Assembly (NCBI GenBank): GCA_944326525.1
Contig: CALVEG010000003.1
Span: 73,846-137,845, forward strand
Source: Candidatus Gastranaerophilales bacterium
GTDB taxonomy: Bacteria; Cyanobacteriota; Vampirovibrionia; Gastranaerophilales; Gastranaerophilaceae
DNA: 64,000 bases
Direction: 5' to 3'
The notes beneath the pieces were generated by a model. The model was not told the DNA's origin. It ran no database searches and worked only from the letters and a program-made list of their open reading frames with translations. Positions 49,704 to 64,000 of the stretch are shown here, one piece after another. The translations under genes and the position numbers were made by a program. Position 1 is the first letter of the stretch. Every line of letters starts with the position of its first letter.

Positions 49704-50633
49704 ATGTCTGAAAGTTATATTGAACTTCAAATTAAAATAAATCCTGAAATAGAAGATATTATTTCAGAGATTTGTTTTGAAAATTTACCATGTGAAGGTA
49801 TTGTATTAGCTGAGGAAGCGTACAAGGATTTGGAATTAATTTCAACTACGGAAGGTACTTTGAAGGTGTTTCTAAATCCTGATAATGAAAATCCCGAGCA
49901 TCTTTCATTAGAATATATAAAAGTTCTTTTAAGTGACCAGCGTGACATTTTAAAAGCCAGAGGTTTAACAGATGAAGAACTTGGAAGTTGGGAGATAGCT
50001 TTTGCTATTAAAGCTAACGAGGATTGGTCTAAGAAGTGGAAAGAAAAATGGGATGTTACTCATGTTTCAGATAGAATTACTGTTGTGCCAGATTGGATTG
50101 AGTATACACCGCATAGAGAGGATGAAGTTATAATAAGGCTTGAGCCTGGTTGTGCTTTTGGAACTGGAACTCATCAGACTACTCAGTTATGCATGAAAGC
50201 TATTGAAAAATATATGCCGTCTGATTCAAAAATGGCAGATATCGGAACAGGTAGTGGAATATTAGCAATTTTTGCTTACAAATTTGGTGCTAAAGAGGTT
50301 TACGGATGCGACAATGATCCGACTGTTATTGATGTTGCAAAAGAAAATGCCTTGAAAAACAATTCAATTTGTTCGTTTGAACTTGGAACTGCTGATAAGA
50401 TTACTGAGAAGTTTGATTTTATATGTGCAAACATTCTTCATAATGTTCTTGCCGAAATTATGGGTGATTTAAAAAATCTTATGAATGATAATGCTATTAT
50501 GGTTTTATCAGGAATTTTGGATGAGAAAAAGCCTGTTGTATATCAGGCAATAAAAAAACATAATTTAGAATTGATTGAAGAAGCTCATCAAGATCAATGG
50601 GTGGCTTTGATTGTAAGAAAACTTGAGGCGTAA
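49704..50633 (+). CDS. prmA: ribosomal protein L11 methyltransferase
   Basis: FGTGTHQTTQLC, DIGTGSGILAI SAM motif. Confidence 0.9.
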   Translation: MSESYIELQIKINPEIEDIISEICFENLPCEGIVLAEEAYKDLELISTTEGTLKVFLNPDNENPEHLSLEYIKVLLSDQRDILKARGLTDEELGSWEIAFAIKANEDWSKKWKEKWDVTHVSDRITVVPDWIEYTPHREDEVIIRLEPGCAFGTGTHQTTQLCMKAIEKYMPSDSKMADIGTGSGILAIFAYKFGAKEVYGCDNDPTVIDVAKENALKNNSICSFELGTADKITEKFDFICANILHNVLAEIMGDLKNLMNDNAIMVLSGILDEKKPVVYQAIKKHNLELIEEAHQDQWVALIVRKLEA

Positions 50634-50673
50634 GCTTTTTCAAAAATTATTTTCTATTGTAAGGAGATTAGAA

Positions 50674-51417
50674 TTGAACAAGACAGCAATAATAATTCCG
50701 GCACGTTACGGATCATCAAGATTAGAAGGGAAACCGCTTTTGGAAGTAGCAGGCAAGCCTGTTATTCAGTGGGTATATGAAAAAGCAATGCAGTCAAAAT
50801 TGGCTGATATGATTATTGTTGCGACTGATGATGAGAGAATTTATAATGCTGTTGTTGCGTTTGGTGGAGTTGCTGAAATGACTTCTAAGGATCATAAATG
50901 CGGTTCTGATAGAATAAGAGAAGTCGTAGATCGTCATCCTGAAATTGCTTATATTGTGAATCTTCAAGGCGATGAGCCTTTAATCGAGCCTTCCGCTATA
51001 GATGAAGTTGCGAGAAATGTTAAAGAAATAGAAAATGCTGATATTTCGACCTTGATAAGAGTTTTGCGTGATGAAAATGAAGTTAACAACCCAAACCTTG
51101 TAAAATGTGTTTGTGACAAAAATGGTTTTGCTCTTTATTTTTCACGCTCAAAAATTCCTTATGAAAGAAATCCTATAAGCGGTAAATTTTACGGACATCT
51201 TGGAATATATGGTTATAAGCGTGAGGCTTTGATAAAGATGACTTCATTAGAACAAACTCTGCTTGAAAAAACAGAAAGTCTTGAACAGTTGCGTGCTCTT
51301 GAAAATGGCATGAAAATTAAAACTTCGGTTGTTGATTTTGTGCCTGTTGGTATCGATACGCGTGACGACCTTGAAAAATTTAAGAAAATTGTTGAATCTA
51401 AAATTCAAAAAGCTTAA
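50674..51417 (+). CDS. kdsB: 3-deoxy-manno-octulosonate cytidylyltransferase
   Basis: IIPARYGSSRLEGKPLL; start placed at TTG 50674 behind SD aaggaga (the track start at 50623 lies inside prmA). Confidence 0.88.
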   Translation: MNKTAIIIPARYGSSRLEGKPLLEVAGKPVIQWVYEKAMQSKLADMIIVATDDERIYNAVVAFGGVAEMTSKDHKCGSDRIREVVDRHPEIAYIVNLQGDEPLIEPSAIDEVARNVKEIENADISTLIRVLRDENEVNNPNLVKCVCDKNGFALYFSRSKIPYERNPISGKFYGHLGIYGYKREALIKMTSLEQTLLEKTESLEQLRALENGMKIKTSVVDFVPVGIDTRDDLEKFKKIVESKIQKA

Positions 51418-51582
51418 ATATTTTTTGTTTTTCCACCTAAAGTATTAAAAAAGTACTTGCAATTTTTCGTAAATTAGGTTAATATAACGTTATAAAAATT
51501 CAAAAAAGTATATATTTTGTAATAATTATATATGTTTTATGTTGAGGTGTTAGATTTATTTAAGTAAGGAAAAGAAGAAATC

Positions 51583-52332
51583 ATGACAGAAAATGCTGAA
51601 TTGCAAAATGAAACAGATGACCGCCAACGTATATTATTAGCTGATGATGAAGCAAGTATCAGACGTATTTTAGAGACACGTTTAAAAATGGCAGGTTATG
51701 ATGTTTATACTGCCGCAGATGGTGAAGAGGCCGTTGCAGCTTTTAATAAATATAATCCTGATCTTGTAGTTTTGGATGTAATGATGCCAAAAATGGACGG
51801 TTATGGAGTTACAAGAGAAATTAGACGTACAGCTGATGTGCCGATTATTATATTAACTGCTCTTGGTGATGTTTCTGAAAGAATTACAGGTCTTGAACTT
51901 GGTGCAGATGATTATGTTATTAAGCCATTTTCACCAAAAGAATTGGAAGCTCGTGTGAAGGCTGTTTTACGTCGTACAAATAACCGTGAAACAGTTACTC
52001 CGGCAGGAAAAGTTACAAAGAATGTTATTACAACCGGTAACATAAAAATTGATACTGCTCGTCGTCAAGTATTCCGTAAAAATGAACGCATTCGCTTGAC
52101 GGGTATGGAATTCAGTTTGTTAGAATTGCTTGTAAATAATTCTGGTCAAGCATTTTCAAGAAACGAAATATTGCAGCATGTTTGGGCGTATCCGCCGGAT
52201 CATAGAATCGACACAAGAGTTGTAGATGTACATATTTCTCGTTTACGCTCAAAGCTTGAATCTGATCCTGCTAATCCAGAACTTATACTTACTGCTCGGG
52301 GTATTGGTTATATGTTCCAAAGAATTAGTTAA
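51583..52332 (+). CDS. rpaB: OmpR-family response regulator, RpaB/Ycf27-like
   Basis: Receiver (ILLADDE...LDVMMPKMDG...KPF) plus winged-helix; as recalled, it resembles cyanobacterial RpaB. Confidence 0.85.
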   Translation: MTENAELQNETDDRQRILLADDEASIRRILETRLKMAGYDVYTAADGEEAVAAFNKYNPDLVVLDVMMPKMDGYGVTREIRRTADVPIIILTALGDVSERITGLELGADDYVIKPFSPKELEARVKAVLRRTNNRETVTPAGKVTKNVITTGNIKIDTARRQVFRKNERIRLTGMEFSLLELLVNNSGQAFSRNEILQHVWAYPPDHRIDTRVVDVHISRLRSKLESDPANPELILTARGIGYMFQRIS

Positions 52333-52463: not shown

Positions 52464-52540
52464 GGCGCCAGTCGTCAAGCGGTTAAGACCTCGGATTGTG
52501 GTTCCGATATGCATGGGTTCGAATCCCATCTGGCGCCCCA
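52464..52540 (+). tRNA. tRNA-His (anticodon GTG) with encoded G-1 and CCA
   Basis: Hand-folded cloverleaf: acceptor GCGCCAG/CTGGCGC, anticodon stem TCGGA/TCCGA with loop TTGTGGT, T arm ATGGG-TTCGAAT-CCCAT, discriminator C, extra 5' G. Confidence 0.93.
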
Positions 52541-54015
52541 TTTTTAACATTTTTCCAGTATTTCATCTTGTAGAATACTGGAAATAATTCTATTTTAAGG
52601 GTTTCTCCGTTATAGCTTAGGGTTCGGACGCATGTTTGAATTATTTCTCTTTTTTGTTGTGGTGTTGCTAGTCTGAACAGTTCCGGCAATTGGTTGCAAA
52701 ATGCCATTATTAAACTTAATTTGTTATACAATATTTTGCTTTTTTGCTTGCGTTCTTCTAATCTTATTTCTAATTGGTTGAGTTCGGAAGCCCATGAAGC
52801 CATCATTTCATTCCAGTCTTTTTCTGACATGCCATAAGGTAAATTTCCATCAAGTTTGTCTTGATAGCTTTTCTTTATTCGATCTTTGATCTGTTCTATT
52901 TTCTTTTGTATTTCAACAGGGTTTTCAATACTGTTCTCATAGTCTTTGATTGCTTGCAATATCTCTCTTGCTTCATCTTTCATCAATTCAATTTCTTTTG
53001 GCGGAATATAAATATCATCAAGCATATCAATAAAAGTTTTTTCAAGATCTTCTTGTTTAATAGCTTTGCATCCGCATTTGCATCTATAATAAATATATTC
53101 TCCGGAGTTGTGTGCTCCTCGTTTCATTTCTGCTGATAATTTATGCTTGCCGCAGCATTCACACTTAATCATGTTTGTATAAGGGAAAAATATATCATGT
53201 GTTTTGGGTTTTTTCCACCCAAACATTGATTGAACTTCATAAAATAATTCTTTTGAAATCAATGGTTCATGCACTCCTTCATATATCATACCTTTATAGG
53301 GTAGTTTGCCAATATAAAAACTGTTCTTCAACATCCATTCAAATTTTCTTGGTGGATATTTTTCTCCAGTTTTTGGATGTTTAAAACCGTCAAGATATAA
53401 TGTATCGCCTAATCTTTTTAAGGAATAATTACCGGTTGCATATAATTCAAATGCTTTTTTAATATATTGAGAATTAATTGGATCAACAATAATAATTTTA
53501 GTATTGTCCGGATTAGTAAAATTTAAGTAGCCTATTGGAGCTTTTCCGGGTCTTATTCCTTCTCGAGCTTTTTGATCCATTCCCATTGTTGTTCTTTGGG
53601 AAATTTTCCTTCGCTCATATAATGCAGTACCTTTGGTGATCCATCTTAAAAGTTCACCTTCTGGACTATCTTCGTTACATTCAGTAACAGATAAAGGAGT
53701 TATTTTACATTCTTCAAAAAATTTTCCTAAAACAGCATAATCATATTCAGTTCCTCTTGATATTCTTTCCCATTTGTAAAAAATAAGAGCATCAACATTT
53801 GAAACATTTTCTCTAGTCCATTTTATTAATTCTTGGAGCTGTGGACGGTTAAGGTCTTTTGCACTAATCCCCTCTTCTCTAAAAACTTTTACAACTTCAT
53901 ATCCTAAAGATGCAGCAAACTCTCTATCTATTCTTTCTTGTCCGTTCAAAGAATAGCCTTTTGTTTGTTCTTCCGTTGAAACACGCACATATATTATGCA
54001 CTTCTTTTTATGCAT
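52483..54015 (-). CDS. large serine recombinase (integrase)
   Basis: IIYVRVSTEEQ catalytic Ser motif, recombinase domain, zinc ribbon (CECCGKH...YYRCKCGC), coiled-coil; last 19 codons lie antisense in tRNA-His. Confidence 0.9.
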   Translation of the reverse strand: MHKKKCIIYVRVSTEEQTKGYSLNGQERIDREFAASLGYEVVKVFREEGISAKDLNRPQLQELIKWTRENVSNVDALIFYKWERISRGTEYDYAVLGKFFEECKITPLSVTECNEDSPEGELLRWITKGTALYERRKISQRTTMGMDQKAREGIRPGKAPIGYLNFTNPDNTKIIIVDPINSQYIKKAFELYATGNYSLKRLGDTLYLDGFKHPKTGEKYPPRKFEWMLKNSFYIGKLPYKGMIYEGVHEPLISKELFYEVQSMFGWKKPKTHDIFFPYTNMIKCECCGKHKLSAEMKRGAHNSGEYIYYRCKCGCKAIKQEDLEKTFIDMLDDIYIPPKEIELMKDEAREILQAIKDYENSIENPVEIQKKIEQIKDRIKKSYQDKLDGNLPYGMSEKDWNEMMASWASELNQLEIRLEERKQKSKILYNKLSLIMAFCNQLPELFRLATPQQKREIIQTCVRTLSYNGETLKIELFPVFYKMKYWKNVKNGAPDGIRTHAYRNHNPRS

Positions 54016-54068
54016 TTAATCCCTGATATTTAATAGTCTAACTGTAAAATCATTATATACGAAAAAAT

Positions 54069-54239
54069 TTATTTGGAGTAATCAAATTTAATTTTTGTGT
54101 CCGGATTAAGATATAATTCTTTGAAGCCTACTTGAGCAAAGAGCGTTATAAATTTCACAAGACGTTTGTGTTCGTCTCGTGGATCAATATCTTCTCGTGG
54201 TTTTACATATTCAACTTTTAATCCGGATGCTTTTTCCAT
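54069..54239 (-). CDS. small hypothetical protein (56 aa) between methyltransferase and integrase
   Basis: Hand-translated MEKASGLKVEYVKPREDID...; ATG overlaps the methyltransferase stop (TAATG); below the track size cutoff. Confidence 0.4.
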   Translation of the reverse strand: MEKASGLKVEYVKPREDIDPRDEHKRLVKFITLFAQVGFKELYLNPDTKIKFDYSK

Positions 54240-54775
54240 TAGAATAAACTCCTTTGATTAAAGCTCTTAAAATCTCTTATAAGTATTTGTTCCGGAAGAA
54301 AATCTCTACAAAAATATGCAGAAGAGAAATTTATTGGTTTTATTTTGCTTTGATTTTTAAATTGCATTCTATCTTCAAACATTAAAAGTTGTAAGCCTTT
54401 ATCTCTGAATAATCTCATAGGTGCTCGATCATTTAACCATGTCAATGTCATAAGCAGGCAAAACGGTTTATTAAAGTTGATAGCTCTTTCAAAAATCTTT
54501 TTTTTATTTGTGAATGGCGGATTGGAAATAATTAGATCCCATTGTTCAGGCTCATAAAAATAATAATCCTGCCCGTTTCGGATATGTGAATTGATGATTT
54601 TATATCCATTCTCCCTGAAGCATTTTACAAACTCGCTTTCTTCATCATCAAACGGCAGCCAAATAACTTTATCCTTGAATTTCGGTAAAAATTCAAGCAA
54701 AGGTTCTACTGCATAGCGTTCGGTATAACATTCGTCATTCTTACCTTGTGATGTGAATAAAAACTCGTTAGTCAT
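54239..54775 (-). CDS. putative DNA (adenine-N6/cytosine-N4) methyltransferase, small NPPF type
   Basis: DLIISNPPF catalytic motif IV; ECYT N-terminal motif; start at the ATG overlapping the upstream stop (AATGACTAA). Confidence 0.65.
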   Translation of the reverse strand: MTNEFLFTSQGKNDECYTERYAVEPLLEFLPKFKDKVIWLPFDDEESEFVKCFRENGYKIINSHIRNGQDYYFYEPEQWDLIISNPPFTNKKKIFERAINFNKPFCLLMTLTWLNDRAPMRLFRDKGLQLLMFEDRMQFKNQSKIKPINFSSAYFCRDFLPEQILIRDFKSFNQRSLF

Positions 54776-55100
54776 TGCTGTTTTCTTTAACCTCAATGGC
54801 AATTAAAATTTCATCGTTTTTAAGCGTTGGTCCTAAATAAGTTTTTATTTCTTTGTATTTACGTTCTTGATATAGGTACGGAATAGGTAGAGGGCAAATC
54901 TTATCACAAAATTTTTCTAATTCTGTAAATATCTTAATCCCTACATAAAAAGATTGAATGGTTATATTATTTCTTTTTGCATAATTATAAGCTTGATCCA
55001 ATTTTTTAAAAACAAACTCCTTATTATTTTTTTTCTTTTGTTCTTTTAATTTTACAATTTCTTTTTTATGATAAAGAATTTGCTTATCAATATTATTCAT
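54768..55100 (-). CDS. hypothetical phage protein
   Basis: ORF with SD ggagaaattt before ATG 55100. Confidence 0.5.
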   Translation of the reverse strand: MNNIDKQILYHKKEIVKLKEQKKKNNKEFVFKKLDQAYNYAKRNNITIQSFYVGIKIFTELEKFCDKICPLPIPYLYQERKYKEIKTYLGPTLKNDEILIAIEVKENSND

Positions 55101-55168
55101 AAATTTCTCCTTTCGCAATATCAGTTATTGTTTTAGGTTTACATTTTTGTTTTAATTTTATTTTTTTC

Positions 55169-55360
55169 TCAATTCTTGTTTGTTAATTTCTGTTCTGCTC
55201 TGTTTGAAAATATTGCTTCTATTGTCGGTAAATCCGCAATACTTATAGTTTCGCAAACTACCTTCATGAATGTATATGATGTATCAGGGTTTCTTAAAAG
55301 TTTGTTTGCCATACGTAAATAAAACTGCTCCCTGATGCTCAAATGCTTATTGTTTTGCAT
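55169..55360 (-). CDS. hypothetical phage protein (63 aa)
   Basis: ORF in a co-directional coupled array (ATG overlaps the upstream stop by 1 nt). Confidence 0.45.
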   Translation of the reverse strand: MQNNKHLSIREQFYLRMANKLLRNPDTSYTFMKVVCETISIADLPTIEAIFSNRAEQKLTNKN

Positions 55361-55626
55361 TATTTACTCCAGTATTCATTTTTGACAATGCAAGCAAATT
55401 CTTTTACTTGAAGGGGTTCATCAATTTTTGCATCTTCAAGCTCTTCAAGAAAAATATTTAAAACATCTTCTTGAAAGTTTTTTATTCTTTTTCTCATGCA
55501 AAGATTAAAACATTTTTTGTATTTGAAAATTAAATCAAGTAATTTGATAAAATTTTCAGCTATTAAAAAATCTATGTAATCTATTTTTAATTGTTCGCAT
55601 ATTAATTTTGATGTATTTATTTCCAT
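55360..55626 (-). CDS. hypothetical phage protein (88 aa)
   Basis: ORF with SD aggagat upstream. Confidence 0.5.
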   Translation of the reverse strand: MEINTSKLICEQLKIDYIDFLIAENFIKLLDLIFKYKKCFNLCMRKRIKNFQEDVLNIFLEELEDAKIDEPLQVKEFACIVKNEYWSK

Positions 55627-55627
55627 A

Positions 55628-55717
55628 TTAAAATCTCCTATTTATACAGATGAAAAACGGTGCTGCAATAAGTCCTAATAATATTCCGGCAGCAAGATTG
55701 ATTAACAGAATTTTCAT
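55628..55717 (-). CDS. 29-aa hydrophobic peptide (MKILLINLAAGILLGLIAAPFFICINRRF)
   Basis: Hand-translated; ATGA overlap with the upstream stop; its own stop lies 1 nt before the next ATG; single predicted TM helix. Confidence 0.35.
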   Translation of the reverse strand: MKILLINLAAGILLGLIAAPFFICINRRF

Positions 55718-55974
55718 CTGTTCACCTCGTTATTGCCAATAACCTGAATATTGTCAAAACAATATCCGCCGGATCCGATTTTTAAACAAACAACTTTTGT
55801 TCCGCTGCCAAGTTCCCATGCAGGTGATGAGGTTTCTGTTTCTAAATAATCATCTTGATTTGTATATATCGGGTAGTATTTAACTTTTGTACCAATCGGA
55901 TATAGTTTGTTGAATTGCTCTATCGTCAAATTGTTAATATTAGAGACTTTTGATTTAATTCTTCTCATGTTCAT
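55714..55974 (-). CDS. hypothetical phage protein (86 aa)
   Basis: ORF; the ATG at 55968 has the better SD spacing. Confidence 0.5.
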   Translation of the reverse strand: MNMRRIKSKVSNINNLTIEQFNKLYPIGTKVKYYPIYTNQDDYLETETSSPAWELGSGTKVVCLKIGSGGYCFDNIQVIGNNEVNR

Positions 55975-56305
55975 TCTCCTTTATAAGTTCAAACTCAATA
56001 TCAAAGACATCTTTATTTATTTTTAAATCTGTACTTTGCCCGTCAATAATTTTAATTGACAATACGTTTGCTTTTAATTTTTCGCCGTTATATCCACATT
56101 GAAAAATGATATTAATTCCAGTTGGATAATATATATCTCCGCCTTTTAGGTACTCAATGTCGCACCACAAGAAATCAAATTTATTTTTAATTCTTGTTAT
56201 CCAATACGGCTTTACTTCTCTATATTCGTGCGTTTTTTCTCCGGATTTGATTTTTTTAAACCATTCTTTTTTGAGATTAAATGTCAACATTTTTGTCATC
56301 TCCAT
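55955..56305 (-). CDS. ASCH-like (PUA-fold) domain protein
   Basis: FNLKKEWFKKIKSGEKTHEYREVKPYW pattern typical of ASCH domains; alternative start at M6. Confidence 0.55.
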   Translation of the reverse strand: MEMTKMLTFNLKKEWFKKIKSGEKTHEYREVKPYWITRIKNKFDFLWCDIEYLKGGDIYYPTGINIIFQCGYNGEKLKANVLSIKIIDGQSTDLKINKDVFDIEFELIKENEHEKN

Positions 56306-56564
56306 ATAGTTTTAATGGTGGGTTCATTCTTTTCCTTATTTCAGCAATAGTAAGCGGTGTTATACTTGTCATATCAATATCGGGAAAAACTAAATTGTTT
56401 ATTCTTTTGAGAGCTCTTTTGTATTTTTCAAGCTCTTTTAAATCTTCAAAAATCTGACAATTATCCTCACAATGCGATAAATCTTCGCACAATTCGCAAA
56501 AACAAGTGCAATAAGGTTTACCGTTAAATTTTTCTTTGCTTTTAAATTTATATTTGCACTTCAT
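56277..56564 (-). CDS. Cys-rich hypothetical phage protein (95 aa)
   Basis: Seven Cys in the first 36 aa (CKY...CTCFCELC...C...C). Confidence 0.5.
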   Translation of the reverse strand: MKCKYKFKSKEKFNGKPYCTCFCELCEDLSHCEDNCQIFEDLKELEKYKRALKRINNLVFPDIDMTSITPLTIAEIRKRMNPPLKLYGDDKNVDI

Positions 56565-56907
56565 CTTCCATTACCTCATATAACTTTTCTTGTTCGTATT
56601 CAAAAATGAGATCTTCCACATGTTGACTAGGATGCTGAACTTCTTTTAATAATTTATAGATACTGTCATCCATGTATTCATTAAGGCATTGAGATATATC
56701 CAGTTCTTCATAACCTTTCTCATAAAAAAGATAATCAAGAATTTTTGAGCAAACCGGACAAACTTTTTGAGAATAAAACCTGCCCTCATAAACTCCGGTT
56801 TGATTTTCGTAGGGTTCGCCTATTAAAATTTTTGTGCGGCAGCACTCGCAAGTATGTTCTTTGCGTGCCGATTTAATTTTTTGAATTGAATAAAAATCAC
56901 TAGACAT
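56548..56907 (-). CDS. zinc-ribbon hypothetical phage protein (119 aa)
   Basis: CECC...CPVC pairs. Confidence 0.5.
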   Translation of the reverse strand: MSSDFYSIQKIKSARKEHTCECCRTKILIGEPYENQTGVYEGRFYSQKVCPVCSKILDYLFYEKGYEELDISQCLNEYMDDSIYKLLKEVQHPSQHVEDLIFEYEQEKLYEVMEDEVQI

Positions 56908-57069
56908 TGTTATCTCCTTGATCCGATTTGTAAAAGTTCGTTGCTTATATTTTCAATTGGTTTGTTAAATTGAACATTATTGGCATTCATTTCACCTTGA
57001 AGAAATGCTGATTTTATAAAACTAAAACTATCTTTTGAAATCTTGACATTATTATGTAATTTATTAAAT

Positions 57070-57624
57070 TCATCTGTTACTTGCTGTTTTTTTGATTACC
57101 ATTAAAGAAGTGCCTGATGATAAAATAGCTTTTTGTTTTTCCTTTTGCATTTCATGTAGCCTTATTGAGAGCTTTTGAGTAAAACCTTCTACAAAATTCC
57201 GCATTATCATTTTCCCTTGATATACTTCAATAAGCTGTTTGTACTCATCGCTCTTTTTGTATCTTTTTAAATCTTGAATAAGCACGGCTGTCAACATTTC
57301 AGCAAAGTGAATGCAAATTTTTACATCCAGTTCAAAACCAAAGAAATGAAACTCTTTTTTTAATTTGTAGTAATAATGTTCACAATCAAATGCTTGAGCT
57401 AATCGAGAAAACAACTTTGCCATATCTAAACGCAACATCTTTACAGATTTATCTATAAAAGAAGAACGGTCAACTTTTTTTAGATCAAGTTCTGAAATAT
57501 TGTATTCAGTCATTAATTTATTGGCTAAATTAAGAGCATTTTCTGCTTCATATTTTGTTGCCCCTTTTTTCTCATTGCGATTTAGTAAATTTAATATTTG
57601 TCGTATGATTTTATCAGTTGTCAT
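57070..57624 (-). CDS. DUF2786-like phage protein
   Basis: N-terminal KIIRQILNLLNR...ATKYEAENALNLANKLMTEYNI helix pair characteristic of DUF2786. Confidence 0.6.
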   Translation of the reverse strand: MTTDKIIRQILNLLNRNEKKGATKYEAENALNLANKLMTEYNISELDLKKVDRSSFIDKSVKMLRLDMAKLFSRLAQAFDCEHYYYKLKKEFHFFGFELDVKICIHFAEMLTAVLIQDLKRYKKSDEYKQLIEVYQGKMIMRNFVEGFTQKLSIRLHEMQKEKQKAILSSGTSLMVIKKTASNR

Positions 57625-57625
57625 T

Positions 57626-57856
57626 TTAATATCTTCCTTTGCGGTTCAGTGCTGCTTTTATTTCTTCATCTGTAATATTATTCTTTTCGTAAAATCCGCA
57701 TATTGAACGTGTTATGTTTGAATAAACTGCAGCCCATTCATTCTTATCAGGTTTTGATTTTGTGTTGCTTTCTAAAAACGTGTTGATTTCGTTTAGAATG
57801 TCATTCGCCATACAGATTGTGTTTGTTCTAAAAATTTTCTCTAATCTTGTCGCCAT
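57626..57856 (-). CDS. hypothetical phage protein (76 aa)
   Basis: ORF 1 nt upstream of the next gene's start. Confidence 0.45.
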   Translation of the reverse strand: MATRLEKIFRTNTICMANDILNEINTFLESNTKSKPDKNEWAAVYSNITRSICGFYEKNNITDEEIKAALNRKGRY

Positions 57857-57892
57857 TAATTAATCCTCATCAGTATAAGTATCACTCATAGA

Positions 57893-58315
57893 CTAGCAAG
57901 CAAAACTACTTGCTAGTTTCGGATTTATTGTTGTTCGGGGGGGGGTAATTCCGAATAGTTCTAAAACTGAAGAAAAATCACTAGATGAGCCATCTAAAAA
58001 GGCTGTTTTTAAAATATCTAGTTGTGAATAATCTTTTGTTTTTTGAAACATGTGTTCAACAAATAACCCTTTTTCTTCCAATTCTTTTTTTCTATTTTCA
58101 AAGAAGTCTATTAGATTAATACTCTTTTCAGATATATAGTTTTTTAACTCAACATTGTAGTTTTCTGAAATGATCGTTTTTTTGTTAAATTCTTCCATTG
58201 GAATAAACTGAATTACAGAAATTCTTAATGTGTGTGCTACAGCTTTAAAATTTTTGTCCTTTAATTTGCTTTCAAATTCCTGCATTGTTTTCTCGTTTGC
58301 CATTTCTACTGTCAT
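57893..58315 (-). CDS. hypothetical phage protein (140 aa) carrying a C9 tract near its 3' end
   Basis: ORF; homopolymer at 57937-57945 encodes ...ITPPR... Confidence 0.5.
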   Translation of the reverse strand: MTVEMANEKTMQEFESKLKDKNFKAVAHTLRISVIQFIPMEEFNKKTIISENYNVELKNYISEKSINLIDFFENRKKELEEKGLFVEHMFQKTKDYSQLDILKTAFLDGSSSDFSSVLELFGITPPRTTINPKLASSFAC

Positions 58316-58366
58316 ATTTTTCTCCTTTTGTTGTGTAATAACTTGCCGTCTTTCCGGCTGTCAAAA

Positions 58367-58999
58367 TTATTTTTCCTTATCTGCATCCTTTTTGATAGGT
58401 GCTAATATTGCTTTTTGTGTAACCTCTTCGGAATTTGTCTCGCAGAGTATTACTGCAAGTTTATCCTTTGTATTAAAAGATAAGTCAACATAGCCCTTTG
58501 GAGCTTTTAATGCTGCAATATCTTTTATTAGTTTTTGTGATACAGTAATGGTGAAATTATTTTTTGTTGGGATGTATTTATTTACATCAGGAAATTTACA
58601 ACCTTCATCAGCATCTTTTGTTCTTAAAATTTGATTAGAGTTAAATTCTTCATCAATAAATTCAACCTTGCCATTTTCGTAGTGAATTATAATTTCGTTA
58701 AGTTCGCCTTTAACAAAGCTAAGTTTTGATGCAAGTGCCATTGATACATAAAATTCACAATCTTCTCCGAGTAAAGTAAGAATTGTTAATTCTGTTTGTA
58801 AAGCTCGGTTTCCGTCTGTTGTAGTTAGAATAAGAACGTCATCTTTGACTTCAAATTTAATTGCACTTAAAACACTTCCTTCTACATTTTTTCCTGATAT
58901 TGCAAATCTTTTATGTGCTGATAAAACTTTTTTGAGATCTGATTTAATGACAGTAACTTCCGTTATTGCTGTTTCCACTTTTTGTTTTGCTTCATCCAT
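58367..58999 (-). CDS. DNA polymerase III beta-clamp-like protein, two-domain (210 aa)
   Basis: SVLSAIKFEVKDDVLILTTTDGNRAL (clamp domain-I pattern) and KFPDVNKYIP (FPDY..VLP-like junction motif). Confidence 0.55.
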   Translation of the reverse strand: MDEAKQKVETAITEVTVIKSDLKKVLSAHKRFAISGKNVEGSVLSAIKFEVKDDVLILTTTDGNRALQTELTILTLLGEDCEFYVSMALASKLSFVKGELNEIIIHYENGKVEFIDEEFNSNQILRTKDADEGCKFPDVNKYIPTKNNFTITVSQKLIKDIAALKAPKGYVDLSFNTKDKLAVILCETNSEEVTQKAILAPIKKDADKEK

Positions 59000-59225
59000 T
59001 TAATTCTCCTTTCTCCAATTCGATTGGTTTAAATATTTGTTGTACGGTGTTAGTTTCAAGTATTTTGTATGTGTATGTTTCATTTGCGAAAAGTAAATTA
59101 GTTGCCTGCATGCCGCAGTTTATGCATTTATATGGGTTTGGTGTCATTTTTCTGCAACTCGGGCATATATATAATTTGCTTGAAAATTCATTATTGAAAT
59201 CTCTTATTGTTTCAAATATCTCCAT
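58992..59225 (-). CDS. zinc-ribbon phage protein (77 aa)
   Basis: CPSC...CINC. Confidence 0.5.
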   Translation of the reverse strand: MEIFETIRDFNNEFSSKLYICPSCRKMTPNPYKCINCGMQATNLLFANETYTYKILETNTVQQIFKPIELEKGELNG

Positions 59226-59664
59226 TCTTCTGCTCTTTTAACTGTTGTCTGAATGCATCTTTTACGGCTTCAATTACTCTGCAAATATATTCTCTATGGT
59301 GATCTGACATTTCAATTTGAACATTATCGGTCTGAACCTTTTTTAAATTATCAAATTCGTCCAGTTCTATTTCGTATGCTTGAGGTTTAAATGTTTCTCT
59401 TGCGTTAAGTTCAAATTTATCTGCTATATATCCTGTGCTTGCTGCAATAAAAAATTTTTGCATTGGTTCTCCCATAGCATTCCAAAAATAATTTAAGGCA
59501 ATGCCGTAACAAAGTATTGTTATTCTGCCTTGATAGCGTGTTTCGTCAGGTCTTTTATCTTCCCATTCGTCAATATAGACCGTTATAGGGTCGAGCTCTT
59601 TTGCTCCGGTTATTTTTATTTGAGTAACCTGTTTTTCTTGGATCTGTAAATTCTGATTATTCAT
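59212..59664 (-). CDS. hypothetical phage protein (150 aa)
   Basis: ORF in the coupled array. Confidence 0.5.
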   Translation of the reverse strand: MNNQNLQIQEKQVTQIKITGAKELDPITVYIDEWEDKRPDETRYQGRITILCYGIALNYFWNAMGEPMQKFFIAASTGYIADKFELNARETFKPQAYEIELDEFDNLKKVQTDNVQIEMSDHHREYICRVIEAVKDAFRQQLKEQKNGDI

Positions 59665-59667
59665 TTT

Positions 59668-60012
59668 TTAGTTAACTCCTTTATTTTTTTGTTTAAGTTC
59701 TGCCATTTCGGGACATATTTCAATTGGTAGGATTTTGTTGTTTGTTATGGTCATTTTCCAAACAAGAAAAATATCATCTTTAAATCTTCCATCTATTTCT
59801 ATCTTGCTACCTTCTACAATTCTTGTTTTGCCCCATGCAACACACATCCTTCCTTTTGGATTTGTGGTTGATTTGCAATAAAAGACAGTCTTATATTTTT
59901 CATTTACAAGTTCGTTTTGAAGTTCAATTTTTATAACTTCCGTACTTATATGGACTTTCTCCGCTTCATATTTTGAGGGTTGCCTGATGTATTTTTTTCT
60001 CTTTCTACTCAT
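59668..60012 (-). CDS. hypothetical phage protein (114 aa), basic N-terminus, beta-rich
   Basis: Start moved to ATG 60012 behind the strong SD aaggagg; it overlaps the upstream stop. Confidence 0.5.
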   Translation of the reverse strand: MSRKRKKYIRQPSKYEAEKVHISTEVIKIELQNELVNEKYKTVFYCKSTTNPKGRMCVAWGKTRIVEGSKIEIDGRFKDDIFLVWKMTITNNKILPIEICPEMAELKQKNKGVN

Positions 60013-60988
60013 TGCAATCCTCCTTATGTTCAAAATAATTGATGGCATCCATGACGGAAAAATGATATTTTTCAGAAAGTTCTTTAAATGTAGAATTGCG
60101 AACAAGAAACTCTTGCCTTTTTATTGGACAATATTTTAAAAGATAGTTTAAAGCTGATTGCTTATTGCAAATTGCATTATAATCTTGCTTTCTTTTTTCA
60201 TCCTGAAGTCTTGCTTCTTCTGCTTGTTCTGCTCTTTTTTTCTCTTCTTCAAGTTTTTTTTGTTTTTCCAGTTCTGCTGCTGCTTCTCTGTCCGGAGCAA
60301 GGAAATAATCATCAGATGCAAAACTATCCCATTTATTGAGAATTAGATCCAGTGAAGGTTTAACATTTTTCTTATCTTTAATATCCCAACCTCTTTTAGC
60401 ATTAGAAAAAACTTTTTCCCATATCTCAAGTGTTAGGTTGTTTTCAGAATGGATTTTAAAAATATTCTCTTTGTTGGTTTTAGAAACAATACGTGAGCTT
60501 TTGAATTTCTCGTTATAAATTTGAATGATTGACATAACAAGTTCTTCATTATAATTTTTTATCGAGTTATCAATATCTTCTTTTTGTTCTTTACTTTCGT
60601 TTTTATTTTTATATCTATTAGCTACGGAACGTCTTGCCTTTTCTGATTTTTCTTCTTGAAGTTTTAAATTTCTGATAACTCTTTCAGAAACATATTCTCC
60701 ATCAATAATTTTGAATAATTGAAAATCTTCAAGAATTTTTTTTATTATTTTTGTGTCGACTCTAAGCTCATCAGCAAGCATATCAATCTCATCTACATAG
60801 AGCTTATTCTCGTGAAGATATTCGATTATCTCCCAATAAATTCCGTATGCAGCATGTGAAATAAGATCTCTTGAAACAGTTTCAGATATTTCATTTTTCG
60901 TTTTCCTGAAATCAAAAAACAGACGTATAATTTTCTGATCAGTTTTTGCAGCTATGTCATGTGAAAAATATGGTTTAGATGCTTTCAT
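60005..60988 (-). CDS. DUF4373 (Lin1244/Lin1753-like) replisome-organizer-like protein
   Basis: YFSHDIAAKTDQKIIRL...AAYGIYWEIIEYL N-terminal signature; K/E-rich linker; C-terminal phage-type domain. Confidence 0.65.
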   Translation of the reverse strand: MKASKPYFSHDIAAKTDQKIIRLFFDFRKTKNEISETVSRDLISHAAYGIYWEIIEYLHENKLYVDEIDMLADELRVDTKIIKKILEDFQLFKIIDGEYVSERVIRNLKLQEEKSEKARRSVANRYKNKNESKEQKEDIDNSIKNYNEELVMSIIQIYNEKFKSSRIVSKTNKENIFKIHSENNLTLEIWEKVFSNAKRGWDIKDKKNVKPSLDLILNKWDSFASDDYFLAPDREAAAELEKQKKLEEEKKRAEQAEEARLQDEKRKQDYNAICNKQSALNYLLKYCPIKRQEFLVRNSTFKELSEKYHFSVMDAINYFEHKEDCNE

Positions 60989-61006
60989 TTCTATCCTTAT
61001 CTGCTT

Positions 61007-61333
61007 TTAATTTTTCAATGCTTTTCTATAGCATTTATCAACTCTTTCTTCTGCGATAACATTAAACATTTCTTTGTAAGCAAGTTTTGCAGCAGTATCT
61101 TCTCGTTGCATTTCATAAATAAACTCAGGTAAATCAATACCTGAAACTTGAGGAGTTTCAAGTAAATCATAATAATAACGGTATGCTTTTTTATAAAGAA
61201 AATTTAATTTCTCTTTTCTTTTTCTAGTTTTGTAATCTTTAATCTGTTTTATAAGATGCAATAAAATGTTTATTTTGATTGCTCTTGGTCTTACAACTTT
61301 ATTTGTGGGAAATTTAATTACATTTGTGCTCAT
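61007..61333 (-). CDS. hypothetical phage protein (108 aa)
   Basis: ORF with SD ggagaaat. Confidence 0.5.
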   Translation of the reverse strand: MSTNVIKFPTNKVVRPRAIKINILLHLIKQIKDYKTRKRKEKLNFLYKKAYRYYYDLLETPQVSGIDLPEFIYEMQREDTAAKLAYKEMFNVIAEERVDKCYRKALKN

Positions 61334-61352
61334 AATATTTCTCCTTATTTTG

Positions 61353-61532
61353 TTAGAGTTTAATGCCGATTAGTTCTTCAATATTATTTTTTTTGATGTA
61401 TTCACGCAGAATTAAAACAACTTGCTTGGAACGAGAGTTGTTTTTTAATTTTGCATAGGCATCAATTATTGACAAAACTCTTGGAGGGAAACCTATTGAT
61501 TTCAACATTTGCCCTTTAAATTCTTCTTCCAT
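61353..61532 (-). CDS. small Cro/RHH-like regulator candidate (59 aa)
   Basis: Hand-translated MEEEFKGQMLKSIGFPPRVLSIIDAYAKLKNNSRSKQVVLILREYIKKNNIEELIGIKL; SD ggagaagtt; first gene of the leftward operon, divergent from the XRE gene. Confidence 0.45.
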   Translation of the reverse strand: MEEEFKGQMLKSIGFPPRVLSIIDAYAKLKNNSRSKQVVLILREYIKKNNIEELIGIKL

Positions 61533-61717
61533 AACTTCTCCTATTTTTGTACGATAAACTACACGAATGTAACGGCAAATTTTGCCGTTTTCGTGTTTTT
61601 ATGATATATGTTAGTTAAACAGTTAAACAAACTAACAATATTAATTATACATAATCGTGCATAAAAGTAAAGCACAAATATGCATAATTTACAAAACTTC
61701 ATACAAACGGAGTAGGA
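61533..61717. promoter_or_regulatory. divergent promoter/operator region of the element's genetic switch
   Basis: 36-bp imperfect palindrome at 61561-61596; TGTTAGTT/AACTAACA inverted repeat at 61609-61638; TGCATAA direct repeats at 61658 and 61681; TATAAT-like boxes on both strands. Confidence 0.55.
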
Positions 61718-62008
61718 ATGTATCAGGAACGCATTAAAAAAATTAGGTCTGAATTAAAGCTGTCAGTCGCAAAGATGGCAGATGAAATGAATATTCCATC
61801 AAGAACTTTTGTGTCTTATGAAAGCGATGGAAGAACTCCGTCTTTAGAATTTCTTGCACAATTATGTAAAACTTTTGATATAAATGCAAATTGGTTTATA
61901 ACAGGTGAAGGCAATATGTTTAATGAACAACAACCTTATGCAAGCAACGAAGAACTTGAGCAAAAGGTTGTTGAAGTAATGAAAAAATACGGAGTTATTG
62001 AGAAATGA
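61718..62008 (+). CDS. XRE/CI-type HTH repressor
   Basis: IKKIRSELKLSVAKMADEMNIPSRTFVSYESDGRTPSLEFL...WFITGEGNMF. Confidence 0.85.
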   Translation: MYQERIKKIRSELKLSVAKMADEMNIPSRTFVSYESDGRTPSLEFLAQLCKTFDINANWFITGEGNMFNEQQPYASNEELEQKVVEVMKKYGVIEK

Positions 62009-62105
62009 GTTTTACAAGCTCATCAAAAAGCTTGAAGGCCTTTTGTTTTCCGTATGTTTTGATTAGAGCATTAAGCAGAGCTTTTAATAAATCTTTTTGC
62101 TTCAT
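61995..62105 (-). CDS. 36-aa helical peptide candidate, convergent with and overlapping the repressor 3' end
   Basis: Hand-translated MKQKDLLKALLNALIKTYGKQKAFKLFDELVKLISQ; SD aaaggagaa 7 nt before the ATG. Confidence 0.3.
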   Translation of the reverse strand: MKQKDLLKALLNALIKTYGKQKAFKLFDELVKLISQ

Positions 62106-62154
62106 AGAAGTTCTCCTTTCTTTATTAAGAAAGTTGGAGAAGGAAAGGAATATT

Positions 62155-62661
62155 ATGAAAAAAGTATTATTTATTTTTATTTTTATTTTTTCTTGTATAA
62201 GCGTATATGCTGCAACAGCTCCTAAATGGAGTGAATTTTGTCCTGATGGTTTTGAAAATCCAGTAATTTTATCATTGGAAGAAATCGAGAATAAAGCGGA
62301 GAAGCTTGCAGAACAAAAAACAAAAGTTTTTTATTGTAAATCTGATAAGACTTATGCAAAAATTTTGCGTGGTGTTACAATATTACCTGCCTTAGATTGT
62401 TGGTGTGGCAATAAACTTGCTAAATCAAATTTTAGACAATCCCTTTTTTATGAAAATGAAATAAATTCATATTGGTTAAATAGAAAGAAACAATTTGAAA
62501 ATGAATTAAGCTCTTGTAATGGTTTATCAGAAGATGCAAAAGGTATGTGTTATTTAAAAGTTAGAGAAATTGAACATAAGAAAAATAATGATTTAAAAAA
62601 TGAAGCTGCTTTAAGAGGTATTCAAAGACAGTTATTTGTTCAAAATCTATTAACTAATTAA
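62155..62661 (+). CDS. secreted/membrane-anchored Cys-containing protein (168 aa)
   Basis: MKKVLFIFIFIFSCISVYA signal sequence behind SD ggagaaggaaagg; the track's alternative start at 62005 (ATGA overlap with the XRE stop) cannot be excluded. Confidence 0.55.
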   Translation: MKKVLFIFIFIFSCISVYAATAPKWSEFCPDGFENPVILSLEEIENKAEKLAEQKTKVFYCKSDKTYAKILRGVTILPALDCWCGNKLAKSNFRQSLFYENEINSYWLNRKKQFENELSSCNGLSEDAKGMCYLKVREIEHKKNNDLKNEAALRGIQRQLFVQNLLTN

Positions 62662-62730
62662 CATGAAGAAACATGAAGCAAATATACCAAAAAGGCTTGT
62701 AATTTTAAAAAAATAGTAAATAATGTAAAT

Positions 62731-63018
62731 ATGAACAAGTTTATTTTTTTATCATTAATATTATTTTTTGCATGTTCTTCTGCTAATGCTGAATATATAC
62801 AACAAGACAGATTTGGCAATTATCAAATGAGTAATGGTGTATATATACAAAATCTCGGTGGTGGTTCATATACTACAAGTAATGGTGATTATATTCATAA
62901 AATGAACGACTACCAATGGCGAACAAATTCAGGAACGGTTAATGTCCGAAAAGATACTTGGGGAAATTACAATGTAACTTCTCCTAATGGAAGTTATTAT
63001 TTGCAAAGAGGTTTGTAA
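62731..63018 (+). CDS. small secreted protein (95 aa) with G-N-Y / S-N-G-x-Y-I repeats
   Basis: MNKFIFLSLILFFACSSANA signal peptide. Confidence 0.55.
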   Translation: MNKFIFLSLILFFACSSANAEYIQQDRFGNYQMSNGVYIQNLGGGSYTTSNGDYIHKMNDYQWRTNSGTVNVRKDTWGNYNVTSPNGSYYLQRGL

Positions 63019-63175
63019 TACATTTGTAATACAGATGTAAAATAATATTTATACGTTCGTAATACGTTTGTAATACGAACGTAATTCGTTTGTAAAATAT
63101 ATTTTTACATTCGTATAATATTGTGAAATACAATTAAAATACCTCTGTAATACGTTCGTATAACGATTGTATTAC
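63011..63175. repeat. 15 contiguous 11-bp iterons, consensus gTTtGTAATAC
   Basis: Read directly in 11-nt register: gtttgtaatac, atttgtaatac, agatgtaaaat, aatatttatac, gttcgtaatac, gtttgtaatac, gaacgtaattc, gtttgtaaaat, atatttttaca, ttcgtataata, ttgtgaaatac, aattaaaatac, ctctgtaatac, gttcgtataac, gattgtattac. Confidence 0.85.
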
Positions 63176-63235
63176 TATAAATAAAATAAAATAAATTAAA
63201 TTAAATTAAAATAAAATAAAAAATACTATACGTAT
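63176..63235. other. 60-bp A/T-only tract with pentamer pattern (AAATA)n(AATTA)n, candidate DNA-unwinding element
   Basis: No G or C between 63176 and 63235; immediately follows the iteron array. Confidence 0.7.
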
Positions 63236-63536
63236 TTTTTATAATAGTCTTAAAAAAAATTATTTTTTATTTTTTCTTTTAGAGCAAAATTTGTTAATTT
63301 TAAATCTTAAATATTAATAAATGTTAAGCAACTCAAATATTGTAAATTTCTAATTGTTACGATTTCTTTAAAAAATTAACAGTTTAACAACTATTTACAT
63401 TTAAAAAAAAATCGTTTAATTTTTAAAACAGATTATGAAATGTATATTTTTCACTAGGGATAGTGAGCTGGGAAGCATAAATATAACGAGTAATAATTGG
63501 TGAACATAGGCAAACTACGTATTTTTTAGGGGAGAG

Positions 63537-63932
63537 ATGCAAAGAATAAGGTTTTCAAATATTTCAATAATACCTTATGATGTTTGGTTTTTGGACGGAA
63601 CCGAACATTTTTGTGAGAGAAAACTTTTACTTGGAAGAACTCCTAAATTAAAAACAGTAGTCAGTCTTATTGAAAAAAGAATTATAGATGGAAGAATTTT
63701 TGTTGATACGCAATGCGGAATAAAAGCTGAAAAGATTATCCAAAACGAAAGAAACCGCATTATGTACACAAGGCAAGATGTTCTTTGTAGTAAAAGAGGA
63801 AAACCTTTTGGATGGACTTATGGGCAAAATAAGGAAATCCACAATAATAAAGGTGAAATTATTGCAATAAGACAAAGAAGGTGTGATTATTTCGGACAAT
63901 CTGAAATAGTCAAAGAAGAAAGAGTTGAATAA
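63537..63932 (+). CDS. hypothetical protein (131 aa)
   Basis: ORF behind SD aggggagag. Confidence 0.5.
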   Translation: MQRIRFSNISIIPYDVWFLDGTEHFCERKLLLGRTPKLKTVVSLIEKRIIDGRIFVDTQCGIKAEKIIQNERNRIMYTRQDVLCSKRGKPFGWTYGQNKEIHNNKGEIIAIRQRRCDYFGQSEIVKEERVE

Positions 63933-63958
63933 CAGAACGTAAATTAAATAGTCTAACT

Positions 63959-63988
63959 GCCTCGATATTTGTTCGGGGCTTTGTTTTG
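63959..63988 (+). terminator. candidate rho-independent terminator
   Basis: GCCTCG-atatttgtt-CGGGGC (one G-U pair) followed by TTTGTTTTG. Confidence 0.4.
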
Positions 63989-64000
63989 TAACATTATGAT

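Follow-up and report, generated by a model that had tools for sequence, protein, structure and literature searches.

A large serine integrase gene ending antisense inside tRNA-His at the putative attL junction of a Melainabacteria prophage, with a C-terminal tail predicted to change on integration

How does an integrase gene come to share its 3' end with a host tRNA gene, and what becomes of the encoded protein when the element integrates or excises? The stretch of DNA analysed here (the window, 64 kb) contains a single tRNA gene, tRNA-His(GTG), which ARAGORN places at 52465-52540 on the forward strand; with the extra G-1 at 52464 and the encoded CCA, this host gene occupies 52464..52540. On the reverse strand, a 510-aa large serine integrase ORF (52483..54015), whose folded body ends near residue 488 as judged from Pfam, AF2 and Foldseek, runs into the tRNA gene and terminates there with ...KNVKNGAPDGIRTHAYRNHNPRS (also given as ...YWKNVKNGAPDGIRTHAYRNHNPRS) followed by a stop codon. 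The terminal 58 nt of the ORF, stop counted, lie antisense inside tRNA-His, and the TAA stop is the reverse complement of a TTA in the D-loop. The ORF and ARAGORN coordinates thus agree with a preliminary description of this DNA, which had reported that a serine integrase ORF ends inside tRNA-His in antisense; its statement that the last 19 codons plus the stop correspond to the antisense tRNA is right to within 2 nt.

Read in antisense, tRNA-His is by our inspection open for at least 19 codons in each of its three frames (3/3), so that read-through of an ORF into this gene is not in itself improbable. What exceeds chance is not the single read-through but its conservation across homologues and across distant large serine recombinase (LSR) loci.

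The tRNA gene separates two regions of different character. The host flank carries genes for a kdsB-like cytidylyltransferase and an OmpR-family response regulator (50623..52332, forward strand; Pfam). The left part of a prophage, delineated from ORFs, PHROGs and GC content, extends from 52544 to 64000 and runs off the end of the window; among its genes are a methyltransferase gene, small early genes, genes for clamp-like and replication proteins and, at a distance of ~9 kb from the junction, a gene for a cI-like HTH repressor (61718-62008). The GC content is 0.27-0.31 on the prophage side versus ~0.34 on the host side of tRNA-His. A search of the 64-kb window for a second copy of the tRNA-His 3' end returned none, and attR is likewise not in the window; therefore, the attR of this prophage lies beyond 64000. 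The repeat families of the window gave no information on the junction.

To locate the junction, we compared empty and occupied versions of the host locus, using 10 loci obtained by an exact-protein look-up with the host response regulator. The same locus is empty in L004, L008, L010 and L013 and occupied in the window, L005, L006 and L011, and L007, which comes from a related species and has another terminator downstream, is also empty. The tRNA-His gene is the same at 77/77 nt in the empty L004, L010 and L013 and in the occupied window, L005 and L011. In the orientation of the window, attB reads ..CTGGCGCCCCA joined to TTTATTGAAATTGACCC (in a longer version, ..CATCTGGCGCCCCA joined to the host terminator TTTATTGAAATTGACCCTTCGGGGTC), attL reads ..CTGGCGCCCCA joined to TTTTTAACATTTTTCC (..CATCTGGCGCCCCA joined to TTTTTAACATTTTTCCAGT), and attP, taken from L001, reads ..TTAGGTGCCCCA joined to TTTTTAACATTTTTCC (..ACCATTAGGTGCCCCA joined to TTTTTAACATTTTTCCAGT). 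L001 is a close relative of the phage in the window (96% aa identity) and not the identical phage. The L005 attL and the L001 attP have identical sequences on the phage side. Compared with L001, the window shows 1 mismatch over ~115 bp upstream of the core, and clustered mismatches with a 5-nt gap downstream of it.

The fourth site, attR, was found in the IMG/VR locus L303, where the P' arm and the tail-coding segment are followed by the core, the host terminator and TTTTTTGTTAGGTATA, which is the flank 3' of the empty tRNA-His in L004. This locus came from a search with a degenerate P'-arm pattern whose 120 matches are mostly due to chance, L303 being clear and L305 ambiguous. Two other searches of IMG/VR for attR gave no further site: an exact host-flank pattern had no match, and none of the 27 loci found through relatives of the L001 endolysin had this integrase downstream. 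All four attachment sites are therefore present in natural sequences.

attB and attP share 9 bp only, GCCCCATTT (52535..52543), which the four-way comparison identifies as the common core of all four sites and which consists of the last 6 nt of tRNA-His (also given as nucleotides 72-76) and 3 nt downstream. Crossover is thus placed at the very 3' end of the tRNA gene, and on this comparison the 2-bp crossover must fall within GCCCCATTT; the remaining 70 nt of tRNA-His and all 16 tail codons after Ala494 are host DNA. The core encodes (K491)-N492-G493-A494, which accounts for the near-invariance of the NGA motif in the integrase family (G493 and A494 are invariant and N492 nearly so). Locating the empty tRNA-His locus in relatives, a check put forward in the preliminary description, thus placed the junction within 52535-52543, and the comparison of empty, occupied and phage-form sites bears out its proposal that the integrase 3' end falls together with the attachment region. 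That description had set against this proposal a tRNA consisting wholly of host DNA, with integrase homologues ending upstream of it. The first part stands, the whole tRNA being effectively host DNA, and the second does not: the homologues do not end upstream, and the phage form is ~34 aa longer.

The anatomy of the half-sites agrees with this placement. The approximate B' half-site of attB and attL (52510..52534) covers the acceptor 3' strand and T-arm of the tRNA and was recognized by its similarity to the P' arm, its extent being taken from the LSR half-site model; the approximate P half-site of attL (52544..52570) covers integrase codons ~482-491 (..YKMKYWKNVK) and follows from the identity between the L005 attL and the L001 attP. 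Both have inferred outer limits. In the integrase sense, the phage P' arm (GGGGC ACCTAA TGG TATGA TTTCC GAACCCC) resembles the antisense acceptor/T-arm of tRNA-His (GGGGC GCCAGA TGG GATTC GAACCC), and its outer motif is located 5 bp further from the core than the B' outer motif. In the LSR half-site model, the zinc-ribbon motif of attP half-sites is displaced outward by ~5 bp relative to that of attB half-sites. The P' arm thus appears to mimic the tRNA acceptor/T-arm with the +5 bp spacing that this rule predicts, and a pattern with the fixed +5 spacing recovers further attP and attR sites of the family. The crossover dinucleotide is probably a CC of the discriminator/CCA, as suggested by the length of the half-sites and by the requirement that the centre be non-palindromic; in a dyad-symmetry scan, CC scored 10/24 and 10/20 matches, and other positions scored similarly.

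The integrase matches the Pfam families Resolvase (PF00239, E 3.1e-25, residues 7-153) and Recombinase (PF07508, E 3.5e-13), together with Zn_ribbon_recom (PF13408) at E 3e-4 and 21.4 bits, under the curated cut-off of 25.3. Across 63-81 homologues, Y9, R11, V12 and S13 are invariant, Ser13 being the catalytic residue, as are the zinc-ribbon residues C285 and C312, with C288 invariant or nearly so. AF2 models show long helices at residues 339-449, and a Foldseek search with the model of a phage-form homologue returned full-length LSR-att complexes on top (9y66, 9dxh, 9iu2, 4kis and 9rah). Matches to cryo-EM structures of full-length LSR-att complexes had E 1e-17 to 1e-19, and LI, Bxb1 and PhiC31 were matched as well. 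The catalytic, recombinase and zinc-ribbon/coiled-coil features, together with the short core and the longer attP half-site, mark the enzyme as a large serine recombinase on sequence grounds. It shares domain architecture, fold and short att sites with the A118/LI, Bxb1, PhiC31, TP901-1 and SPbeta integrases, as well as an attP outer motif ~5 bp further out than that of attB. To our knowledge, the attB sites of those integrases are in protein-coding or intergenic DNA and their attP sites are outside the int ORF. Among deposited phage genomes nothing is closer than 30% identity and only distant Firmicutes-phage LSRs were found, and compared with the LI integrase the window family has ~85 extra C-terminal residues past the aligned region.

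The ends of homologous integrases were compared next to the att sites, as the preliminary description had advised. A search at E<1e-20 yielded 897 homologues, and tails were classed in the best 120 clusters of these 897. The tRNA-His-antisense tail, ...NGAxxG(I/V)RTHxYRNHNPRS, occurs in 70 of these best 120, and a phage-form tail in ~28 of the same 120, diverging right after NGA and continuing for 32-40 aa more to ends such as ...LIAA, ...LLAA, ...LVA and similar. Contigs with the long form have convergent phage lysis genes directly downstream, followed by a DGR RT with Mtd and a terminase, and we therefore assign the long form to the unintegrated (attP) configuration. The phage form, of ~528 aa, has the layout ...KNVKNGA-PNGMISEP-(two short predicted helices)-Phi-[A/V/I]-A-COOH, and the 510-aa prophage form reads ...KNVKNGA-PDGIRTHAYRNHNPRS, its tail being read from the antisense tRNA and predicted to be disordered. 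This host-encoded tail, P495-S510 plus the stop (52483..52533, reverse strand), runs from about tRNA position 69 to the D-loop and is missing from the phage-form homologues. As a separate observation, several homologues end in peptides resembling antisense T-arms of other tRNAs.

The two tail classes, the att comparison and the L303 attR together uphold the earlier suggestion that the integrase has a different C-terminus in the integrated and the excised form. On the sequence evidence, the phage attP lies within the 3'-terminal part of the integrase gene; integration regenerates an identical tRNA-His and moves the sequence past codon Ala494 about one prophage length away, to attR, and the catalytic, recombinase, zinc-ribbon and coiled-coil parts are the same in both isoforms. 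We consider this architecture, with attP in the LSR gene, the core at the 3' tip of tRNA-His and two isoforms, very nearly certain. Taken as a whole, the locus is best explained as the attL junction of a temperate Melainabacteria phage with a tail-swapping LSR, which we regard as likely.

Structure predictions for the two forms agree with this view. In the AF2 model of the phage form, the body has a mean pLDDT of 86, the linker 492-499, encoded by the core and the inner P' arm, falls below 50, and the tail comprises helices at 502-513 and 516-527 with pLDDT 66-80. The prophage-form model (mean pLDDT 82) has the same fold up to helix 479-487, and its residues 493-510 are predicted to be disordered (pLDDT <50). 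Because the folds agree up to this helix, integration is predicted to leave the enzymatic machinery intact and to exchange an appendage only.

What might the exchanged tail do? The terminal residue is Ala in 29/29 phage-form tails (background Ala 5%), position -2 is A/V/I in 26/29 and position -3 is L/I/F in 27/29, a few tails having less canonical ends (..WIRA, ..HYA, ..DAA). The last 20 aa share 21% pairwise identity and fall into 21 groups, and the terminal Ala codons differ synonymously (GCA, GCT and GCG), which argues for constraint at the protein level. A Phi-[A/V/I]-A-COOH motif is assigned to 29/29 phage-form tails and is missing from the prophage form. These features suggest a functional module in the phage-form tail. 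ssrA-like ClpXP tags are characterized by a Phi-A/V-A carboxyl terminus, and the LAA/LVA-like end of the phage-form tail may act as an ssrA-like degron, which is the reading that we prefer, though at a little under even odds. Integrase made from unintegrated DNA, before integration or after excision, would then be tagged and short-lived, and the prophage isoform, without the tag, would be available for excision with a directionality factor. A search for tmRNA in the 321 sequences retrieved, for comparison with the host tag, found none.

Since the tail is predicted as two helices and not as a simple disordered tag, there is room for a directionality or partner-binding reading, and a role in regulation or interaction would account for the two predicted helices no less well than a degron would. 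The phage-form tail might accordingly be a module that regulates or interacts, influencing the directionality of recombination or the choice of site, and might dock for example on the coiled-coil, the zinc-ribbon region or a directionality factor; Int-528 would then be suited to attP x attB and Int-510 to attL x attR. Several lines agree with such a module: the two predicted helices sit on a flexible linker, the tail keeps a conserved length of 32-40 aa, LSR directionality depends on C-terminal-domain contacts (PDB structures of an autoinhibited attL state and of RDF complexes), and a change at the 3' end of the Mx8 integrase gene is described as having altered activity with no inactivation (PMC6070905). 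However, the best-conserved feature is the extreme C-terminal Phi-A/V-A and the helices are only ~21% identical, a pattern more typical of a terminal recognition tag, and we consider the module reading unlikely.

A swap without function has less in its favour. In this case attP would overlap a dispensable int 3' end, perhaps through genome compaction, and both tails would be passengers, which fits a folded integrase that ends near residue 488 in both forms, a prophage tail dictated wholly by the tRNA sequence and predicted to be disordered, and the open antisense frames that make read-through not improbable. Passenger tails, however, would hardly preserve their length, an Ala at the end of 29/29 and a hydrophobic residue at -3, and these features persist through 21 divergent tail groups in which codons vary synonymously; we regard this explanation as improbable. 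The possibility raised in the preliminary description of an element-borne copy of the tRNA 3' part that doubles as the integrase tail, with crossover deep in the tRNA, might draw on the resemblance of the P' arm to the acceptor/T-arm of tRNA-His but is scarcely credible, and we take it as ruled out by the empty-site, attP and attR comparisons: attB and attP have only the 9 bp GCCCCATTT in common, the phage arm differs at many positions and in its 5 bp spacing, the L303 attR has the P' arm and no displaced tRNA fragment, and the tRNA body of the lysogens equals that of the empty sites, whereas phage-form sequences differ there.

Among known systems, the closest precedent appears to be Mx8, whose attB is reportedly at tRNA-Asp genes. 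The window integrase is not an IntP homologue, as it has Pfam Resolvase and Recombinase domains and no Phage_integrase domain; the Mx8 enzyme is a tyrosine recombinase, whereas the one described here is an LSR with a short core and no arm sites. According to the accounts of Mx8 in PMC6070905 and PMC4383910, attP lies within the integrase coding sequence and integration gives a recombinant int with a new 3' end, the integrase being modified and not inactivated by this change (PMC6070905). As far as those accounts go, the two systems agree in having attP in the int ORF and in yielding, as in the relationship of IntP to IntX, an intact int with a new 3' end upon integration. Unlike in Mx8, the replacement tail here is read from an antisense tRNA and the phage-form tail has a conserved LAA/LVA-like end.

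The integration-dependent immunity systems of BPs, Brujita and Charlie provide a second comparison. As outlined in PMC9262239, their attP is in a gene of the regulatory cassette and their attB overlaps a tRNA 3' end; tags resembling ssrA ('--LAA' or the like) on viral Int and Rep serve as a control device, and integration deprives the repressor of its ssrA-like tag. The locus described here resembles these systems, so far as they are described there, in a site within a phage gene and a tRNA 3' end as target; the phage-form tail lost on integration would here be a candidate counterpart of their ssrA-like tag. It differs from them, again on the published outline, in that their attP is in the repressor gene (Broussard et al. 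2013) and ours in the serine integrase gene, that their tyrosine integrase uses a 35-bp common core to restore the tRNA whereas a serine integrase here uses a 9-bp core, and that the protein whose tail is swapped is the repressor in the mycobacteriophages and the integrase itself here. In the window, the cI-like HTH gene is ~9 kb off, so that attP is not in a repressor gene, and the integrase is not a tyrosine recombinase.

SSV-type elements of fuselloviruses and Thermococcales, to judge from what PMC7253208 reports of them, likewise have the recombination site in the integrase ORF and a tRNA target, but their 'suicidal' integration splits the gene into two inactive parts, whereas here only the last ~34 codons are exchanged (PMC7253208). 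The SSV1-type precedent invoked in the preliminary description is therefore a poor fit, the catalytic and DNA-binding domains being intact here, and by analogy Mx8 IntP/IntX would be the better precedent. We reject the SSV1 analogy: the gene is not disrupted, the 510-aa prophage ORF keeps all domains, and the integrated-state integrase is intact in 70 homologue clusters (of the best 120 of 897). The Islander tDNA-island signature is also absent, with only 6 nt of the tRNA in the core and no displaced fragment.

A working rule holds that only tyrosine integrases target tRNA genes (PMC4383910), which a tRNA-targeting serine integrase contradicts. Our full-text literature search, which was not exhaustive, turned up no account of serine integrases that target tRNA genes, nor of an LSR gene that extends across attP, and a large LSR-discovery preprint makes no mention of tRNA. 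The arrangement works like Mx8 IntP/IntX and recalls integration-dependent immunity, from which it differs in its serine integrase, its 9-bp core at the tRNA tip and its replacement tail read from the tRNA. Island and prophage finders that rely on a displaced tRNA fragment will miss or mis-trim such elements, as will annotation pipelines that forbid overlaps between CDS and tRNA genes. The locus offers a natural system in which one LSR gene gives two isoforms set by integration state, and control of stability or directionality by the tail is a directly testable question on serine-integrase regulation. LSRs are leading genome-engineering tools; a natural attB half-site formed by a conserved tRNA acceptor/T-arm offers ready-made landing sites in many bacteria, and a removable tail could serve as a built-in off-switch.

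Our data also indicate the host and the spread of this arrangement. Close relatives of the integrase in GTDB species representatives occur in Candidatus Melainabacteria/Gastranaerophilales MAGs only, identifying the probable host of the prophage as a gut bacterium of this group; the locus thereby documents temperate phages of an uncultured gut lineage, and related phage-form contigs carry DGRs. Among distant LSR loci from GTDB genomes, the integrase ORF runs antisense into a tRNA gene in 37 of the 66 that could be evaluated, 28 of these ORFs stopping inside the tRNA and 9 reading through, with 12 tRNA types represented and loci from Bacteroidota, CPR, Chloroflexota, Pseudomonadota and other phyla. 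It is possible, though less likely than not, that serine integrases of a large clade not yet described, present in Melainabacteria, Bacteroidota, CPR and other phyla, target the extreme 3' ends of tRNA genes with ORFs that span attP, that integration state switches the isoforms, and that the phage-only tail of the tRNA-His family serves as a control module that can be transferred, acting as a degron of the ClpXP type or as a switch of directionality. If so, integrase stability or activity would depend on whether or not the genome is integrated, and the system would be a serine-integrase counterpart of integration-dependent immunity, possibly with RDF-independent control of direction.

A minor feature of the junction is a predicted 12-bp AU-rich hairpin (52552..52584, forward strand), 12 nt 3' of tRNA-His and within integrase codons, with a centroid energy of -12.6 kcal/mol and a z of -2.6. 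A terminator scan around the junction made no call, this hairpin included. By position, the predicted hairpin would stand where the displaced host terminator was.

Seven of the more distant integrase homologues, from the set of the best 120 of 897 (P0027, P0099, P0107, P0110, P0113, P0115 and P0116), terminate in peptides typical of the antisense T-arms of other tRNAs, such as ..GFEPT.., ..GWTRTSNP.. and ..GNSNPR... Such endings indicate that the integrase family has switched between target tRNAs. The 527-aa homologue P0002 carries a tandem duplication, WKNVKNGADSGIRTAPF-WKNVKNGADSGIRTHAYRNHNPRS, in its C-terminus, which suggests either that the att/tRNA-end segment was duplicated or that the assembly contains an artefact.

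In the window, an AU-rich 12-bp hairpin (52552-52584) sits where the host terminator stood before it was displaced, 12 nt downstream of tRNA-His and within the integrase codons for FPVFYKMKYWK. The hairpin, which was not called in the terminator scan, might act in lysogens as a terminator or processing signal for the tRNA transcript; alternatively, it might be part of the P arm, the phage side of the attachment site kept at attL.

L009 (11007-12190) harbors a second, attR-like junction 1.13 kb downstream of an otherwise empty tRNA-His site. An antisense remnant of the phage-form tail is combined there with an arm resembling the phage P' arm, the core sequence and the same host terminator; a 164-aa ORF in this locus is therefore flanked by a 38-bp direct repeat. 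We interpret the second junction as probably a prophage scar. In L012 (10953-11075), the core is followed by TTTTTAgaaac.., the beginning of the attL P-arm sequence, which is fused straight to a giant gene encoding a 2749-aa protein, with neither the host terminator nor the 164-aa ORF in between. This flank looks like the product of an imprecise prophage deletion.

The giant host gene adjoins the empty site in L004 (11823-20072) and likewise in L010, L012 and L013. Its 2749-aa product yielded a faint match to an HD domain and nothing else, and a 2176-aa ORF on the opposite strand stands in its place in L009.

Repeat analysis of the window detected an 11-bp unit (GTTTGTAATAC / CGTTCGTAATAC) present in about ten copies at 63011-63175, in intergenic prophage DNA downstream of the cI-like repressor region. 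The copies are spaced by one helical turn, and the array could serve as an operator or iteron array.

The phage-form relatives L001 (8243-9427) and L002 (15857-18740) carry a diversity-generating retroelement (DGR), comprising a reverse transcriptase (RVT_1) and mtd_2nd together with a large neighboring gene of 1834 aa, with lysis genes nearby. These temperate phages of Melainabacteria are thus DGR phages; the window stops short of the corresponding part of the prophage.

The repeat search also delineated families D5, D6, D8 and D19 at window 2800-5000. Because these direct repeats are acidic and GAAGATGA-rich, their sequence suggests a host gene for a repetitive acidic protein.
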